The notes under the pieces were generated by a model. It was given only the letters and a program-made list of their open reading frames with translations, was not told the DNA's origin and searched no databases. A DNA stretch of 38,473 nucleotides from a virus. Both the position numbers and the translations under genes were made by a program. This document shows, piece after piece, positions 2,598 through 25,652 of the stretch; within the stretch, counting starts at the first letter, position 1, and each line of letters opens with the position of its first letter. The DNA lies in the IMG/VR virus record IMGVR_UViG_3300032893_000164, positions 1 through 38,473 of that record; one strand, written 5' to 3'.

Positions 2598-3251
2598 TCA
2601 CCATTTTCCAAACTCGAGCGGAGTATTGACGTGTGCCTGAGAAAAAAAGTCAATTCCCGGCTTCACTGGATCAAAGGTTTCCCCGTATCGATCACAATCT
2701 AGTTCTTTATTGATATGCGTGAAGGGAAGAACGAGCTCCATTTTTTTACCGCAATGTTCCATGTAGTCGCCTTTTGTGAACTCGAGAAACAATGGGAATG
2801 CGTCTTCATTGATAATGTGAATCGACGCTTCTGGAAAGTTATATCTTTTACACCAGACGCTTTGCCAGCCGGTATTCGCGTCATTGATCCAGTCCGCCAT
2901 TCGACGAGAAAGCACGAAACTGTCCGAGTCAATGTAGATCAGCTTTTTAGCGCGACTCGTTTGAATGTAATGATTCATGGCATAGAGTCCACGCCAGCAG
3001 TATGGATACCAATCTCCGCCGCCGTGATTAAGCCTTAAGTTGAATCGAATCGATTCGAAATCGAACGAGTCGGTGAGCTGCTTCCAAAGATCATCTGGAG
3101 ATGCGTTGTCGAGAAGTAAAATTCGATCGAACTGAAGTTCTCCCTGGATGTTTAGATAATAATCAAGAAATTTGACGGTTCTCGCTAAGCGCGAAGATCC
3201 TGATTTATCTTCACCCTCGAGGAAACTTGTTGTCCAAAGAATGGTGCTCAC
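2598..3251 (-). CDS. Glycosyltransferase, GT-A/GT2-like
   Basis: LLLDNASPDD (like the GT2 DNxSxD motif) and YIDSDSF (DxD). 217 aa. 4-nt overlap with the upstream GT gene. Confidence 0.65.
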   Translation of the reverse strand: MSTILWTTSFLEGEDKSGSSRLARTVKFLDYYLNIQGELQFDRILLLDNASPDDLWKQLTDSFDFESIRFNLRLNHGGGDWYPYCWRGLYAMNHYIQTSRAKKLIYIDSDSFVLSRRMADWINDANTGWQSVWCKRYNFPEASIHIINEDAFPLFLEFTKGDYMEHCGKKMELVLPFTHINKELDCDRYGETFDPVKPGIDFFSQAHVNTPLEFGKW

Positions 3252-4234
3252 AAAATCTCGTTTAGCACGGGAATAAACTTATCAGCAGTCATATTGGCGA
3301 CGACCTTTTGCCAGCCAGGAAATTTGCGATAATCTCCCTTTTTAAAGCCAGAGCCATAGGTCTGGTAATAGCGATTAGGAGTGTTCGCATCTGGCTCAAT
3401 GGCTCGAAACTTATAGGTTTGAGAGCCTTTTCTAATCGGTGCGACATGGATGGGATCTACAAGAGTATATCCCGCCACAATCCATGTGTCGGTACATCCA
3501 GCTAGATGAATCATTCCTCCATCAAGTCCAATAATACATTTGGCTCCAGCGATGACGCCCGCGGCCTGGCAAAGAGTTGTTTTGTTGGTCAGATCAATTC
3601 CCTTCGCGCGGTCGATCGGCAGAAGCTGCGCCTTAAGTTCCATCTCATTAAACCCGATCTCAGCTTTTTCTTTTCCGATGAATACGGGCGTATAGCCTTT
3701 CGCCAACACATAGTCGATGAGTGCGTTCATGGTTGGAATCGGCATGGCTTTGATGGGTTCAGAGGCCGAGCTCACGAGACAAACATATTTTTCCGGCAAA
3801 TGGAATTCCTTAATGAAGAGTTCTTCTGGCCTCACCTGGAGATAGTTTTTCTTGTTCAGATCATAGATGTGTCGATCTGAAAGCATATGGAAGCCATAAT
3901 CAACCGGATGAGTACGCATACACGTATGATTGGTAATCCACTGCGTGCTCATTCCCTGAATGTCGTGCCGAAACTTAGCCTCTGCTCTCGAGAAGGGTCG
4001 AACGGTGCTGAGCGGAGGTAATACGTGTTTGGCGAATTCGAGCAAATAGTCAGGAACCCAGACATGGAAATGCGTCTCGGGATAATTCCGAATATTGTAG
4101 TCTACGGCCACGAGCTCGCAGATTAAATCGCCTGCCCCGCCATCGGTCAGAATATTATGGAATTCCGCGGGAGTTTTATGGATGGCCGAGATAAATGGAT
4201 CTGGTGTCTCTGTTTTTGTTTGCGATTGGATCAT
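3248..4234 (-). CDS. Glycosyltransferase, GT9 (heptosyltransferase)-like
   Basis: N-terminal GGAGDLI and C-terminal TTLCQAAGVIAGAKCIIGLDGGMIHLAGCTDTWIVAGYT resemble the GT9 signature (L..l..li..a.l.ig.DSG..HlAaa.g.p). 328 aa. Confidence 0.7.
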   Translation of the reverse strand: MIQSQTKTETPDPFISAIHKTPAEFHNILTDGGAGDLICELVAVDYNIRNYPETHFHVWVPDYLLEFAKHVLPPLSTVRPFSRAEAKFRHDIQGMSTQWITNHTCMRTHPVDYGFHMLSDRHIYDLNKKNYLQVRPEELFIKEFHLPEKYVCLVSSASEPIKAMPIPTMNALIDYVLAKGYTPVFIGKEKAEIGFNEMELKAQLLPIDRAKGIDLTNKTTLCQAAGVIAGAKCIIGLDGGMIHLAGCTDTWIVAGYTLVDPIHVAPIRKGSQTYKFRAIEPDANTPNRYYQTYGSGFKKGDYRKFPGWQKVVANMTADKFIPVLNEIL

Positions 4235-4388
4235 GTTTCGAGCAATATTTTTTGGGTTTAATAACGCGGGCCGCGCATCCTTTTCTCCAGCATTTGTTAA
4301 GTCGATGATCTAAACACAACATGTCTTTATTGCAAACTCGTTTTAAACAGCCTGGATGTCGGCATGGGCCCCAATCAGAATCGTGCAT
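4176..4388 (-). CDS. Small Cys/His-rich (zinc-finger-like) protein
   Basis: Two copies of C-x2-GC-x(n)-C-x2-H (CRHPGCLKRV..CLDH and CWRKGCAARV..CSKH). Its last 59 nt overlap the GT9-like gene. Confidence 0.45.
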   Translation of the reverse strand: MHDSDWGPCRHPGCLKRVCNKDMLCLDHRLNKCWRKGCAARVIKPKKYCSKHDPIANKNRDTRSIYLGHP

Positions 4389-4686
4389 TTGTTCCCCCTA
4401 TTGTCTTGGATGGCTTATTCTCTTCCTCAGCCTCAAGCGCGAAAGCCAACAACTCTTCAAGCGTTGGGGCGGCAACACTATAAGATCCGATCGGAGTATT
4501 TGGATACCATCGGAGTGTCCAAATCTCATCGGTAGCTATGGCCCTAGCTTTTGATTCGTCATCCTTCCAGTCTGGCGGACATTCAAGCTGGTCTTTGTCA
4601 TCGCACCATTTCTGAGCGGATTCGTAGTCATCCCGGTGCACGTTGTGCTCCAAGTACAGTCCGCATTTGTGTTTTGGAAGCTTCAC
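4375..4686 (-). CDS. Hypothetical acidic protein
   Basis: ORF 4375..4707 has only TTG at its 5' end. GTG at 4686 is preceded by AAGGGGAAAAA (SD). Confidence 0.55.
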   Translation of the reverse strand: MKLPKHKCGLYLEHNVHRDDYESAQKWCDDKDQLECPPDWKDDESKARAIATDEIWTLRWYPNTPIGSYSVAAPTLEELLAFALEAEEENKPSKTIGGTNARF

Positions 4687-14194: not shown

Positions 14195-14582
14195 GCGGCT
14201 CCTCGATGAATGGGATGAAATATTACGCGCAACAGGATTCAAAGACATTGAAAGGCGCATTGGTCATGATCGCGTTCTTATTCAATATTCAAGCAATTGC
14301 TATCGACAAGCGGATCCCACCACAAGAGAAAGCAAAGAATCCTATTACGAGCAACTTAGCGCCAAAGTTCAAACGCATCGATTTGAAAACGAGACCGATC
14401 GATTCGTTATGTTTCACATCGCTGACGGGGTTAGGATCAAGACGATTGTAGAGTTACTGGCTGAAATGGGTCAGAGCATTCATAGGCAGACGATACGTTT
14501 TATTATTCGCCGCTACGAGAACTTATGGGGAATCAAGATGTGGTCGAACCGGCAAATGAACCTGAAGACTCGTATCAAATAA
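14157..14582 (+). CDS. Putative HTH DNA-binding protein (possible regulator)
   Basis: C-terminal IKTIVELLAEMGQSIHRQTIRFIIRRY looks like a helix-turn-helix. Non-ATG (GTG) start; exact start uncertain. Confidence 0.55.
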   Translation: MLRVRRKNDPQLERLLDEWDEILRATGFKDIERRIGHDRVLIQYSSNCYRQADPTTRESKESYYEQLSAKVQTHRFENETDRFVMFHIADGVRIKTIVELLAEMGQSIHRQTIRFIIRRYENLWGIKMWSNRQMNLKTRIK

Positions 14583-14986
14583 TTACCTACGTCGGCCAAT
14601 CTCTGCCGAGCGGCAAGGGAAGCCTTAAGTCTTTGGTTCTCAGTCGGTTCATGCGAAGTTTAAGGTACGGTAATAATTATTTTGAACTCATTGATAGCGA
14701 TCCCTATTTCCAAGTGTATGAGGCTTATATAAACTCGCTCCTTGCCAGGCCGGATACGAAAGTGAAGTTTGCGGTTCTCTCGGATGATCACGACAACGTC
14801 TTAGGCTTTGTCGTCATCGAAAACCACAAGCTTCATTATTGCCATGTTCAAAAGGATTACCGTCGCCAGGGGATCGCCGCAGCCTTATGTAAAGAACCGT
14901 TTAGCGTGATCACGCATATTACGCATACGGGACTCACCATTTGGAATAACAAATTTCCGCTTGTTAAATTTAACCCATTTGCTTGA
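14525..14986 (+). CDS. GNAT-family N-acetyltransferase-like protein
   Basis: VLGFVVIENHKLHYCHVQKDYRRQGIAAALC contains the acetyl-CoA motif R-x-x-G-x-A after a beta-strand. The start overlaps the previous gene by 58 nt, so the start is uncertain. Confidence 0.55.
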   Translation: MGNQDVVEPANEPEDSYQIITYVGQSLPSGKGSLKSLVLSRFMRSLRYGNNYFELIDSDPYFQVYEAYINSLLARPDTKVKFAVLSDDHDNVLGFVVIENHKLHYCHVQKDYRRQGIAAALCKEPFSVITHITHTGLTIWNNKFPLVKFNPFA

Positions 14987-23403: not shown

Positions 23404-24711
23404 ATGGCTATTGCGCCAGTCTATGCCAACTCCTCCAACCAGATTGCTGCGTTGAAGGAATTGTACACGGACGATAAAGACTACATGAAAAATATCGTTT
23501 ATTCGAAGAATCCATGGCTTGCCATGATTCCGAAAAACGAGAGTCCAGATGGTTTTGCGGGTAAATACATCCCGGTTCCGCTGGAATACGGCAATCCTCA
23601 GGGCCGTGCACACATCTTCGCTAACGCTCAGAATCAGCAGACTGCTTCTGACGTGGTTAGCTACTTCGTGTACGCGGTTCAGGACTACCAGCTTGTTACC
23701 ATCACGAACCTGTTGATGGAGCAGACGAAGAGCAATGCCGGCGCGTTCGTCGATGAAGCTTCCAGGACCATGGATAATGGCTTCCGGAACTTGTCGAATA
23801 ACATGGCGTTTGAGCTCTTCTCGGGCGGTACGTCGTCTCGCGGCCAGATCGGTTCTGGCGGTGTCAGCGTTTCAGGTACGACTCTCAGCTTCACGCTTCT
23901 CAACACTCAGTCTGTTGTGAACTTCGAAGGGGGGATGACACTCCAGGCTTCGACGACCGACGGCGGTGCTGCTCTCACGGGCAGCGGATCTGCAGTTCTC
24001 GCGGCTCAGGTGACTTCGGTCAACCGCGGAACGGGCGCTATCACGGCCGTTGTCGTGCAGGACACCTACAGCTCGACTTGGGCTGCTAACGACTATCTCC
24101 AGGTTTACGGGGATATCGGTACTGCGGGCGCTTCGACGATTGCGGGTATGCTTGGACTCTCGGGCCTTGCGGCTTGGGTTCCTTCGAGTGACCCTCTTTC
24201 GACCGATAACTTCTGGGGTGTCAACCGTTCGGCGGATCCGACTCGTTTGGCCGGTCTCCGGTACAACGCGTCTGCTCAGTCGATTGCTGAAGGTCTCACT
24301 TCCGCGCTTGCCTTGGGCAACCGAGAAGGTGCGGCGTTTGACCTGATCATCATTGACTTCCTGTCCTACAGCTCGCTCATTAACGAGCTCGGCGCGAAGG
24401 TTCAGTATGTTCAGCTCGAGCATGATGAAGTGGAAGTGGCTTTTGAAGCCATTCACTTCCATTCGGCTTACGGCAAGATCCCGGTGCTTGCTGACCGTTC
24501 TTGCCCGCAGCAGACGGCGTATTGCTTGACCATGGATACGTGGAAGCTTCGCACGCTCGGAAAGGCTCCTCATATCCTGACTTACGGTATGGAAGGGCTT
24601 GAAGGGCTGCGCGTTGGCAATGCGGATGCTCTTGAAATCCGTATCGCCTACTACGGCAACGTCATCAATAGCGCCCCTGGCTATAACATGTACGTTCAGC
24701 TGTCGGCTTAA
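23404..24711 (+). CDS. Major capsid protein
   Basis: 435 aa. Follows the scaffold gene and is followed by a terminator. Strong SD AAAAGGTAAGGGTGA. Confidence 0.8.
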   Translation: MAIAPVYANSSNQIAALKELYTDDKDYMKNIVYSKNPWLAMIPKNESPDGFAGKYIPVPLEYGNPQGRAHIFANAQNQQTASDVVSYFVYAVQDYQLVTITNLLMEQTKSNAGAFVDEASRTMDNGFRNLSNNMAFELFSGGTSSRGQIGSGGVSVSGTTLSFTLLNTQSVVNFEGGMTLQASTTDGGAALTGSGSAVLAAQVTSVNRGTGAITAVVVQDTYSSTWAANDYLQVYGDIGTAGASTIAGMLGLSGLAAWVPSSDPLSTDNFWGVNRSADPTRLAGLRYNASAQSIAEGLTSALALGNREGAAFDLIIIDFLSYSSLINELGAKVQYVQLEHDEVEVAFEAIHFHSAYGKIPVLADRSCPQQTAYCLTMDTWKLRTLGKAPHILTYGMEGLEGLRVGNADALEIRIAYYGNVINSAPGYNMYVQLSA

Positions 24712-24728
24712 GGCTTATTCGAAAGAAT

Positions 24729-24766
24729 AAGGGGGGCTCTCCAGGGATGGGGGGCCCTTTTTATTT
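24729..24766 (+). terminator. Rho-independent terminator candidate after the capsid gene
   Basis: AAGGG(ggg)CTCTCC-agggat-GGGGGGCCCTT, a stem with a 3-nt bulge and two G-U pairs, followed by TTTATTT. Confidence 0.5.
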
Positions 24767-24768
24767 GG

Positions 24769-24851
24769 GGGAGGATAGCTCAGCGGTCAGAGTACTCGGA
24801 TTGGCTAATAAACCATCCTAGGGGTCCTTGGTTCGAATCCAAGTCCTCTCA
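24769..24851 (+). tRNA. tRNA-like gene with canonical acceptor, D and T arms but a 27-nt anticodon arm (10 nt too long); isotype undetermined
   Basis: Acceptor GGGAGGA/TCCTCTC (G2-U71). U8, D arm GCTC-AGCGGTCA-GAGT, variable loop GGGTC, T arm CTTGG-TTCGAAT-CCAAG, discriminator A. No encoded CCA. The anticodon region is CTCGG-ATTGG-CTAATAA-ACCAT-CCTAG. Confidence 0.6.
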
Positions 24852-24854
24852 CCC

Positions 24855-24869
24855 AAGTGTCATTTCGGA
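24855..24869 (+). repeat. 15-mer AAGTGTCATTTCGGA, copy 2
   Basis: Exact match to 18193..18207. Starts 4 nt after the tRNA-like discriminator base. Confidence 0.9.
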
Positions 24870-24959
24870 TATTAGTGAGGTCTTACATATTGTGAGGCGT
24901 ACTGCCGCTTAGGTGCCTGGGGCCAGCGGAGAGAAATTCCCAGGATAGGAGCTACTATC

Positions 24960-25652
24960 ATGAGTGTCGTTCGCGGATACCTAAACGGCGGTAATTTTTA
25001 TTCTAACGTCGCTAAACCCATCGATATCAACCTGAACTTCATTGTGGACCATACCAACGGCAACGGCCTTGGTATTCGTTCCCTGAAGTCTAATGGCTAT
25101 GTGCGTAACGTGTTTATGAACACGAATCAGACGCCGGGATCGAATGACGGGTACACGAATCCCAATCCCGCAGCCGGCTTTGCCTGGATTCAGCTTAAAA
25201 ACAATTTCAACTACTATCTGGGCGGTTTCTCTGGTTTCGTCAGTCAGACGACTGGATCAGCCACGAGCACGACGAGCGGAAATGCGTATGTGATCCGAAC
25301 CCTCGGAACAACAACTTTGGCGCAATGGCAGACCGCGGGTCTTCCTCCCGGATTTACTCCGACCGTTGGCCAGGCGTTTGTTGCGAAGGCGACGGGTGCT
25401 ATCGGCGGAACCGGAACTGTTACTTCTCCTTCTGTTTCTGGAATTACGTGTGTCGAGGTGGTTGGAGACACGAATCAGATGATCGCCAATAGCAATATCG
25501 CGTCTTATGGAGGTGCCTGGCTCTTGGTTCAATTTCTAGGAGCCACAAACTCGAGTACGACCACGCTTATTCCAACGGCTCCAGCAGATAATGCGGCCGT
25601 AGGGATGACCATTCGCATGGATGGCTCGAGCGTTACGATTGACGGCATCTAA
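24960..25652 (+). CDS. Abundant-looking virion protein (230 aa; decoration or tail-related)
   Basis: SD AGGAG. Own upstream leader and a strong downstream terminator. G/T/S/N-rich beta-type composition. Confidence 0.8.
   Translation: MSVVRGYLNGGNFYSNVAKPIDINLNFIVDHTNGNGLGIRSLKSNGYVRNVFMNTNQTPGSNDGYTNPNPAAGFAWIQLKNNFNYYLGGFSGFVSQTTGSATSTTSGNAYVIRTLGTTTLAQWQTAGLPPGFTPTVGQAFVAKATGAIGGTGTVTSPSVSGITCVEVVGDTNQMIANSNIASYGGAWLLVQFLGATNSSTTTLIPTAPADNAAVGMTIRMDGSSVTIDGI

Follow-up and report, generated by a model that had tools for sequence, protein, structure and literature searches.

We propose that an 83-nucleotide (nt) gene with the shape of a transfer RNA (tRNA), located at positions 24769-24851 on the plus strand of a 38,473-nt stretch of viral DNA (IMG/VR record IMGVR_UViG_3300032893_000164; the whole stretch is referred to as the window), is a functional, non-decoding tRNA mimic, i.e., a canonical tRNA body whose anticodon stem-loop has been replaced by an irregular hairpin that is 8-10 nt too long, a reading to which we give an even chance of being correct. 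Judged from the three sequences known, the element is probably a tRNA mimic and neither a translator nor a dead gene. The window represents nearly all of a 38.7-kilobase (kb) metagenome contig (ENA ERZ27256510), and the phage belongs to a small clade of podovirus-like phages, part of a very large uncultured family whose relatives stem for the most part from metagenomes of soil and peat. A second complete copy of 81 nt was identified at the same position (1812-1892) of contig L099 (Logan SRR29078211), which is the closest capsid relative with 92% amino-acid identity, while contig L198 (Logan SRR14194064) starts inside a third copy, of which positions 1-28 retain the variable loop, the T arm, the acceptor 3' strand and the sequence ACCC, followed by the same downstream region. 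As the element is thereby present in the identical slot of three independent assemblies (one ENA, two Logan runs), an assembly artefact was rejected.

A canonical tRNA body

The gene reads GGGAGGA-TA-GCTC-AGCGGTCA-GAGT-A-(CTCGGATTGGCTAATAAACCATCCTAG)-GGGTC-CTTGG-TTCGAAT-CCAAG-TCCTCTC-A, then CCC, with the central arm in brackets. Its recognition as tRNA-shaped, originally made from the letters alone, was confirmed by ARAGORN and by the Rfam tRNA model RF00005, which matches with 46.6 bits (gathering threshold 29; E 5e-7 with the whole window searched), with all model positions 1-71 being matched and with no other Rfam match in the window. Reading the sequence directly, one finds an acceptor stem of 7 base pairs (bp) including G2.U71 (24769-24775 / 24844-24850), a D arm with an 8-nt loop carrying G18 G19 (24778-24793), the central or 'anticodon' arm of 27 nt (24795-24821), the 5-nt variable loop GGGTC (24822-24826), the T arm CTTGG-TTCGAAT-CCAAG (24827-24843) and the discriminator A (24851), directly 3' of which CCC follows (24852-24854). 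Next to U8, A14, G15/C48 and G18G19, every nucleotide engaged in tertiary interactions is present, and the textbook parts listed by the original prediction (the acceptor stem with its G-U pair, U8, A14, the D loop, G15/C48, the variable loop, the T arm and the discriminator A) were all borne out. The same holds for the cloverleaf features of RF00005, as the 7-bp acceptor stem, the 5-bp T stem, U8, A14, G18G19, R15:Y48, T54-Psi55-C56 and G53:C61 are all found within 24769-24851.

In the alignment of the window, L099 and L198 copies the 3' tail ACCC is kept in all three, which implies that the CC of the 3' CCA end is encoded. The full cloverleaf was calculated at -24.9 kcal/mol and is isoenergetic with the minimum free energy (MFE) structure (-25.0 kcal/mol). 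No open reading frame (ORF) of at least 80 amino acids overlaps the element on either strand, and on the minus strand of the region RNA-family matches remain at noise level. The Infernal search against Rfam, which had been proposed as a check, returned the full-length tRNA match only and no tRNA-like family; transfer-messenger RNA (tmRNA), Y RNA and other Rfam families gave no match to the element even at E up to 10.

The central arm and the question of decoding

The anomaly that drew attention to the gene, a segment of 27 nt instead of the normal 17 between A26 and the variable loop (24795-24821), stands both by direct reading and in the Infernal alignment to RF00005, where 17 nt of the central arm are scored as insert at a place at which the model has a 7-nt loop. 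The preferred fold of this arm begins with 2 bp and a C.U mismatch, followed by 4 bp, a bulged U and another 2 bp that close the 8-nt loop CUAAUAAA (-5.4/-4.9 kcal/mol); among the folds considered at the outset, the one with a 6-bp stem, a bulged U and an 8-nt loop, supplemented by two outer pairs, is hence the thermodynamic preference. For the L099 copy, which scores 46.3 bits with the Rfam tRNA model, its anticodon region again remaining unaligned, the MFE structure is a clean cloverleaf. Its 25-nt arm is predicted to start with 2 bp and a pyrimidine-pyrimidine (Y.Y) mismatch, to continue with 3 bp and a bulged U, and to end in 4 bp closed by a GGAA tetraloop of the GNRA type. Both predicted arms thus share a layout of 2 bp, Y.Y mismatch, 3-4 bp, bulged U and 2-4 bp, and they exceed the normal length by 10 nt (window) and 8 nt (L099). 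A 5-bp anticodon stem closing a 7-nt loop with U33 and a purine at position 37 is found neither in the 27-nt arm of the window nor in the 25-nt arm of L099, and according to the folding models the central arm offers nothing that could credibly serve as an anticodon loop at the place expected of a normal tRNA. The GGAA tetraloop predicted for L099 could not present an anticodon, which in turn would mean that the family cannot read codons.

ARAGORN, the use of which had been proposed inclusive of its intron mode, does call a gene, but the anticodons it assigns are inconsistent between the orthologs. Without introns the window copy becomes tRNA-Pyl(CTA) and the L099 copy Leu(GAG), and with introns allowed the calls change to Ala(GGC) with an 8-nt 'intron' and to Pro(CGG) with an intron, amounting to four different anticodons over two orthologs and two modes. 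The orthologous copies therefore share neither anticodon nor isotype, and removal of the insert would not yield the same mature tRNA either (Ala(GGC) versus Pro(CGG)). In the CTA model of the window copy the loop carries G32 G33 and hence no U33, while the D arm is broken, and the Ala(GGC) model is not canonical either; as the CTA call is moreover not repeated in L099, an amber suppressor or pyrrolysine tRNA was rejected. The ORF map of the window, with its long uninterrupted ORFs under the standard code, gave no sign of stop-codon recoding.

An archaeal-type intron is marked by a 3-nt bulge, a 4-bp helix and a 3-nt bulge at its junctions, and bacterial group I introns have a core of at least 200 nt. 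In the predicted arms no bulge-helix-bulge motif was found, the only irregularities being one 1-nt bulge and one 1x1 mismatch, and with an extra sequence of just 8-10 nt a group I intron is impossible. The idea of a mini-intron or of other unusual processing, as raised by the original prediction, is thus disfavoured by intron-mode products that differ between the orthologs, by the L099 tetraloop and by the lacking motif, and the two deletions that had been suggested to restore a normal loop (Pro-UGG, Gly-UCC) are without counterpart in the ortholog. Anticodon stems of natural decoding tRNAs comprise 5 bp and at most, rarely, 6 bp (PMC7609411), so that, given the conserved geometry of tRNAs, a 9-10-bp stem would misplace the anticodon relative to the acceptor end. 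A decoding tRNA, be it by removal of an 8-10-nt mini-intron or by an unusual loop (a CUA amber suppressor, AAU, or an 8-nt loop presenting a 4-base anticodon), can refer to the Pyl(CTA) and Ala(GGC) calls and to the 8-nt loop that formally has a U at its second position, but set against the diverging L099 calls, the tetraloop, the defective CTA model, the missing intron signatures and the absence of recoding, we leave it hardly any chance of being right.

Selection on the tRNA body

The comparison of the window with L099 provides a local record of divergence. Capsid DNA is 82% identical, the tRNA 5' part 81% and the tRNA 3' part 90%, while the long arm retains 33% (9/27); the flanking non-coding DNA lies at 60-64%, with 60% for the terminator region and 64% for the promoter-like region, and the downstream leader at 78%. 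As a neutral yardstick the 4-fold degenerate sites of the capsid gene were used, which are near saturation (92/211 = 44% identical). Compared with these, the tRNA scaffold is conserved far above the neutral level (48/56 = 86% versus 44%; binomial P ~8e-11), and where stem positions did change in L099, pairing was maintained: 4:69 went from A-U to G-C, 5:68 from G-C to G.U and 10:25 from G.U to G-C. In L198, position 49:65 of the T stem changed from C-G to A-U, again with pairing kept, and G2.U71 and the ACCC tail are unchanged among the copies. Scaffold conservation above the neutral rate together with compensatory changes implies that the tRNA body has been under purifying selection since the lineages split. 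The arm itself diverged to the level of unrelated sequence and yet still forms an over-long hairpin in L099; the pattern of substitutions hence indicates that selection is on the tRNA body, with the arm keeping only its length class and hairpin character. Selection on the structure of the arm is suggested by n = 2 complete sequences, whose hairpins are modestly above shuffles. The ortholog comparison that had been called for at the outset thus found the over-long arm again in the one ortholog in which the arm is visible, and the lack of conservation of the extended stem that was named as speaking against the gene was not observed.

These numbers bear directly on the possibility of a decaying pseudogene, which had been listed among the candidate meanings and which would be an ordinary phage tRNA that suffered an insertion into its anticodon arm and is drifting to loss. 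Such a history would suit a patchy, dispensable gene missing from ~90 relatives, located in an insertion-prone slot that elsewhere is home to homing-endonuclease-like ORFs, without detectable promoter and with arm hairpins that are marginally non-random. It is disfavoured by the scaffold identity of 86% as opposed to the neutral 44% (P 8e-11) and by compensatory acceptor- and T-stem substitutions (4:69 and 49:65) across three lineages, and it does not sit well with two complete copies that retain every tertiary nucleotide, score ~46 bits each and are extended at the same place by a similar number of nt. The latter means that the extension predates the divergence and that the body was selected afterwards. 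We consider decay quite unlikely.

The strong divergence of the arm could alternatively be understood if the gene were a natural 'tRNA scaffold' with a hairpin as payload, in which the body provides processing and stability and the fast-diverging hairpin binds a lineage-specific protein or RNA. The architecture resembles that of the engineered scaffold, in which a hairpin stands in for the anticodon stem-loop (PMC3753655), the arm (33%) is more diverged than the flanking non-coding DNA (60-64%), and both arms possess a pyrimidine-pyrimidine mismatch and a bulged U, as is typical of protein-binding hairpins. The apical loops are nevertheless unrelated (8-nt CUAAUAAA versus the GGAA tetraloop), the hairpins are weak (-5 to -6 kcal/mol) and no complementary target exists within the window; furthermore, an identity of 33% is no lower than expected from neutral saturation (44% at 4-fold sites), so that drift under a pairing constraint suffices to explain it. 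A payload is accordingly given a slim chance. An antisense role of the arm was rejected, as no complementary site for it was found elsewhere in the window.

Distribution of the element

A covariance model (R1) was built from the window and L099 copies and used to search 590 kb of family loci, whereby just the window (105.9 bits), L099 (100.1 bits) and L198 (26.1 bits) were recovered as family members. The tRNA sequence of the window is found in 0/78 IMG/VR loci that were compared (capsid identity 58-87%). Contigs that carry the nearest homologs of the capsid and downstream proteins led to L099 and L198, whereas the element is absent from the others, L100-L104 and L199-L204. In most relatives the capsid gene is separated from its downstream neighbour by 150-210 nt, comprising the terminator, the promoter-like motif and the leader, versus 248 nt in the window, which identifies the tRNA-like gene as an insertion in this slot. 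In L204 a near-identical terminator (…GGGGGCCCTTTTTATTTGG) runs straight into the promoter-like region, with an 86-nt module missing; due to this empty site the element can be described as a clean indel of ~86 nt, a discrete accessory module. Its distribution and substitution pattern mark the element as an accessory gene for an RNA that has a tRNA body, does not decode and is under selection.

Viral, metagenome and genome collections yielded no additional copies when searched with an exact 22-mer of the 3' half, a pattern of D arm, long spacer and T arm, a relaxed 3' half, or degenerate T-arm/acceptor patterns; two metagenome pattern matches (L196, L197) are unrelated tRNA-cluster phages. A T-arm 21-mer occurs in 91 viral contigs, in ordinary tRNAs of many isotypes, in large-intron tRNAs or in 3' fragments. 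Class-I D arms with 8-12 extra nt gave 18 viral matches, in all of which the extra length lies in the variable region and in none in the anticodon arm. Descent from a known phage tRNA was rejected, as only generic similarity was found (E 0.2-0.7). An attachment-site (attP) remnant was rejected too: the tRNA is complete and not just a 3' part, there is no duplication relative to the empty site, and no integrase was found, the latter in agreement with the original prediction.

These searches yielded two observations on other phages. The 18 viral contigs L079-L096 (e.g., L085:3707-3792, L083, L079), many of them large gut phages, contain 84-86-nt tRNAs of class-I appearance with a variable region enlarged by 8-12 nt, some of which have unusual loops such as TTATAAA or TTTATAA and may be suppressor-type or otherwise non-standard. 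In L196 (reverse strand, ~470-660), L106, L110, L125-L127 and others the same T arm is accompanied by anticodon-region inserts of ~35-100 nt or occurs in 3' fragments only; ARAGORN gives no call on this group, the members of which are likely intron-containing tRNAs or attachment-site remnants in unrelated phages.

Genomic context

Upstream of the element, a 435-amino-acid ORF (23404-24711, +) encodes a putative major capsid protein, an assignment that builds on a weak SU10_MCP match (17.2 bits, below the cut-off of 24.1) and on the gene order portal-scaffold-X-?-adaptor, in which it is preceded by a portal gene and a scaffold-sized ORF. Its family counts >2,000 homologs at E <= 1e-100. Of the location in a capsid region, as originally stated, the sub-threshold match and the gene order are weakly supportive. 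The capsid gene ends in an intrinsic terminator (24725-24766, +), identified by terminator scan and folding as a G+C-rich hairpin followed by a U-tract (UUUUUAUUU), with -27.4 kcal/mol and z -5.55 (0/200 shuffles being as stable), which ends 2 nt 5' of the tRNA-like gene and has an equivalent in relatives. Concerning the capsid gene itself, L068 (~3960-4300), L059 (~2885-3250) and L062 (~3690-4010) appear to carry a conserved structured insert of ~250-300 nt near its 3' end (…CTCTGATTGACTTGGAAGCC…GTGAACGACTAAGTGAGA…GATGCGATAGTCTGA…), 3' of which the last capsid codons resume, and which may be a group I intron.

On the downstream side, intergenic comparison revealed a promoter-like motif (CATTTyGGA..TnAGTGAGG; 24856-24898, +), inclusive of a small predicted hairpin (24880-24898, +), which is kept in relatives both with and without the tRNA-like gene. 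The terminator scan gave no second terminator downstream of the element, where hairpins run into GCGUACUG and AGAGAAAU and not into U-tracts. The description of the gene as wedged between two terminators therefore holds for its upstream side, with hairpin and U-tract, and has to be replaced downstream by a promoter-like region and a pseudoknotted leader.

This leader belongs to a gene of 230 amino acids (24960-25652, +; ORF map, homolog search) with >1,200 homologs, and stem complementarity over 42 loci identified in it an H-type pseudoknot (24901-24944, +). In the window ACUG is followed by stem 1 (24905-09 / 24925-29), AGAGAAAU (24930-37) and stem 2 (24916-22 / 24938-44), and in relatives the elements are ordered as ACUG, stem 1, linker, stem 2, linker, stem 1', AGAGAAAU, stem 2', with equivalent positions in L001-L104 and L198-L204. 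Stem 1 is fully paired in 81% of the loci (cross-locus control 5%; 29 distinct stem sequences) and stem 2 in 93% (cross-locus control 13%; 38 distinct stem sequences). No Rfam match to the pseudoknot was obtained. It adjoins the insertion slot, just 5' of the ribosome-binding site of the 230-amino-acid gene, and is not part of the tRNA-like gene. It probably serves as an operator of translation or in the manner of a riboswitch, and it is widespread in the phage family. A more distant clade (L050-L062, L073, L075) possesses an analogous but different leader.

This arrangement brings up a further reading, according to which the tRNA body would serve as punctuation for RNase P and 3' processing only, being cut out of the late transcript so as to separate the terminator-protected capsid messenger RNA (mRNA) from the downstream message, with the excised RNA having no function. 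The element, oriented like the late genes, has its place precisely between the terminator of the capsid gene and the next leader, the ACCC tail is conserved, and RNase P needs just the acceptor/T-arm stack, the elbow and RCC, i.e., the conserved parts, leaving the arm free; tRNA-like domains of non-coding RNAs can indeed serve as RNase P substrates (PMC4201824). On the other hand, most relatives share the terminator, the promoter-like motif and the leader without the element, L204 even with a precise empty site, which means that punctuation is not needed for the operon. The promoter-like motif 3' of the element suggests a transcription start of its own for the next gene, the 3' end of the capsid mRNA is already set by a strong terminator, and the lengthening of the arm, as opposed to simply keeping it, is left unexplained. 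Punctuation as the sole role is hence regarded as rather unlikely. A conserved body with a free arm sequence suggests, however, that of the roles named by the original prediction both the decoy or sponge and the RNase P/Z punctuation fit the data.

Other occupants of the slot

Genes shaped like a tRNA are uncommon in this phage family. With a minimal detector that combines an acceptor stem with a canonical T arm, five shuffles of the 590 kb gave 0 matches, and the real loci gave the window element, that of L099 and two in L074 only, all of which are irregular. One of the L074 genes (4425-4509) forms, together with L019:5165-5253, a second, unrelated tRNA-shaped family of 85-89 nt in the same slot after the capsid terminator, characterized by a CUGUUAA loop (Asn-like GUU), G73, an encoded CCA and a long GAAA-capped variable arm; the T loop of the L019 gene is degenerate (GGCGGGG). 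ARAGORN calls both as tRNA-Asn, while both escape the Rfam tRNA model at E < 1. The other L074 gene (5535-5605), a third irregular element located in the next intergenic region, was found by the minimal detector and weakly by R1 (15.6 bits), and combines a 7-bp acceptor stem and the T arm UUCGAUU with a vestigial D arm and a central arm that is again long, with 4 bp, U.U and 4 bp closed by a 10-nt loop. These findings hint that irregular tRNA mimics recur in these phages. Irregular tRNAs were known earlier from soil and peat environments (PMC5389517).

In L019, L015/L016, L100-L102, L201 and L202/L203 the slot is occupied by small ORFs resembling free-standing homing endonucleases, with a precomputed Pfam Endonuclease_7 match in L202/L203 and a GIY-YIG-like motif, seen by eye, in L019, which identifies the slot as a hot spot for mobile or accessory insertions. 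An insert of ~120 nt in L001 (4440-4565), which by eye resembles a four-way junction (GCUGCGG/CCGCAGC), was rejected as structured RNA, as shuffled sequence is predicted to fold equally well (z -0.02).

Comparison with known systems

The closest architectural parallel is man-made. In the engineered tRNA scaffold of Ponchon and Dardel a hairpin replaces the anticodon arm, and in bacteria the RNA is recognised by factors of the cell, processed precisely and stable (PMC3753655). The element likewise keeps the acceptor, D and T arms and continues the anticodon stem into an inserted hairpin; unlike the scaffold it is natural, its insert is very short (net +8 to +10 nt) and no payload is evident. 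YrlA-type Y RNAs, reported in 22 bacteriophages, are non-decoding and contain a tRNA-like module of D, T and acceptor parts with tRNA modifications, whereby one such domain was shown to be cut by RNase P and given CCA (PMC4201824). The likeness to a non-decoding RNA with a tRNA-like module is a loose one: YrlA has a Ro60/TROVE gene within ~4 kb, a GNCGAAN0-1G motif, and an internal tRNA module, with the RNA ending in a long Ro60-binding stem (PMC4201824), whereas the ends of the element form a normal 7-bp acceptor stem, no TROVE match is present among the window proteins and no Rfam Y-RNA match was obtained.

Among structurally non-canonical tRNA-shaped genes, allo-tRNAs, SelC*-type tRNAs and the irregular-tRNA polycistrons of peat and forest soil were described from bacteria of soil and peat and from the phages of these, some being proposed as regulatory non-coding RNAs instead of decoders (PMC5389517, PMC7609411). 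The element resembles them in being irregular, but these tRNAs possess 8/4 or 9/3 acceptor/T stems, long variable arms, anticodon stems of <=6 bp and 7-nt loops (PMC5389517, PMC7609411), while the element, in contrast to allo-tRNA and tRNA-Sec, is of the 7/5 type with a 5-nt variable loop and is aberrant in the anticodon arm alone. With ordinary phage tRNAs, which include forms whose changed anticodon loops let them escape anticodon nucleases of the host (PMC10264068), it shares being a phage-borne, patchy accessory gene, for which kind tRNA-targeting defence is the leading idea; unlike these decoding tRNAs with 5-bp stems and 7-nt loops, its family is without a usable anticodon. In tmRNA, too, a long helix adjoins the tRNA-like acceptor and T arm where a tRNA would carry its anticodon arm, yet tmRNA has G3:U70, no true D stem, pseudoknots and a tag ORF, whereas the element has G2.U71 and 83 nt, and an ARAGORN tmRNA search was negative. 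In the literature, the coverage of which was incomplete, no tRNA-shaped gene of natural origin, from phage or bacterium, was found that combines an otherwise canonical body with a central arm of 9-10 bp and no anticodon; this is absence of evidence only. The element can be grouped with the non-decoding tRNA-like RNAs, a kind already known.

Proposed mechanism

The proposed mechanism starts from the position of the gene between the terminator of the capsid gene and the promoter-like region and leader of the next late gene. As no sigma-70-like promoter was found upstream of it, it probably shares the transcript of the late capsid gene, extended beyond the terminator by read-through or anti-termination. 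Next, RNase P would cleave at G1, and the 3' end would be trimmed to A-C-C and then completed to CCA. Given the acceptor/T-arm stack, the intact elbow and A73-C-C, the RNA should mature and persist like a tRNA, by analogy to the tRNA scaffold and to the Y RNA domain that RNase P cleaves and that receives CCA, and its body would allow folding and modification as a tRNA does. The lengthened arm would keep the RNA off the ribosome, while the body would engage a host factor able to recognise the elbow or the acceptor end of a tRNA. The most plausible role is that of a competitor or decoy for a host tRNA-directed activity.

Several findings weigh against a functional mimic of this kind. The known copies amount to two complete ones and one fragment, and ~90 related loci do without the element, which is therefore dispensable. 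The arm hairpins of the window and L099 exceed shuffles in stability to a modest degree only (P ~0.05; 0.11-0.15). With no promoter found and a strong terminator just upstream, expression could be low, and a stoichiometric decoy would have to compete with the large cellular tRNA pool. Finally, a phage-encoded partner was not found, as Pfam scans of ~40 window proteins gave no tRNA-related enzyme, Ro60/TROVE, RNA ligase or similar; the scans gave no integrase either.

Two other proteins of the window may be recorded at this point. A 153-amino-acid protein (14525-14986, +) has sub-threshold matches to GNAT acetyltransferases (best 22.4 bits versus a cut-off of 27); some GNAT toxins act on aminoacyl-tRNA. 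On the minus strand (2598-4234) a family-9 glycosyltransferase, heptosyltransferase-like (49.4 bits), adjoins a weak GT2-like ORF, and both may be host surface-modification genes in this ~38 kb phage.

In its most specific form, the proposal would be that a small soil and peat phage clade carries a dedicated, anticodon-less tRNA mimic that is expressed together with the capsid gene, brought to maturity by tRNA enzymes of the host and barred from the ribosome by its lengthened arm, and that serves as an uncleavable or unmodifiable analogue titrating a host tRNA-targeting defence enzyme (e.g., an anticodon nuclease or an acceptor-end-modifying toxin), with the irregular genes in L074 (two) and L019 (one) belonging to a wider, unrecognised class of phage tRNA decoys that are mislabelled or missed by standard finders. 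This version we regard as unlikely, albeit with a real chance of being true.

Implications

With three sequences the case is a small one and constitutes a lead, not an established class. It does illustrate a risk for annotation, since calls such as 'tRNA-Pyl(CTA)', seemingly an amber suppressor, for the window and 'tRNA-Leu(GAG)' for L099 could pass for genetic-code recoding in metagenomic phages. tRNA genes of phages are usually explained by codon supply and, more recently, by the replacement of host tRNAs lost to defence nucleases. In a phage tRNA gene that is clearly selected and yet non-decoding, the tRNA body by itself can be what selection preserves, which points to RNA-level tRNA mimicry, be it as decoy, competitor or processing handle, as an accessory function of phages.

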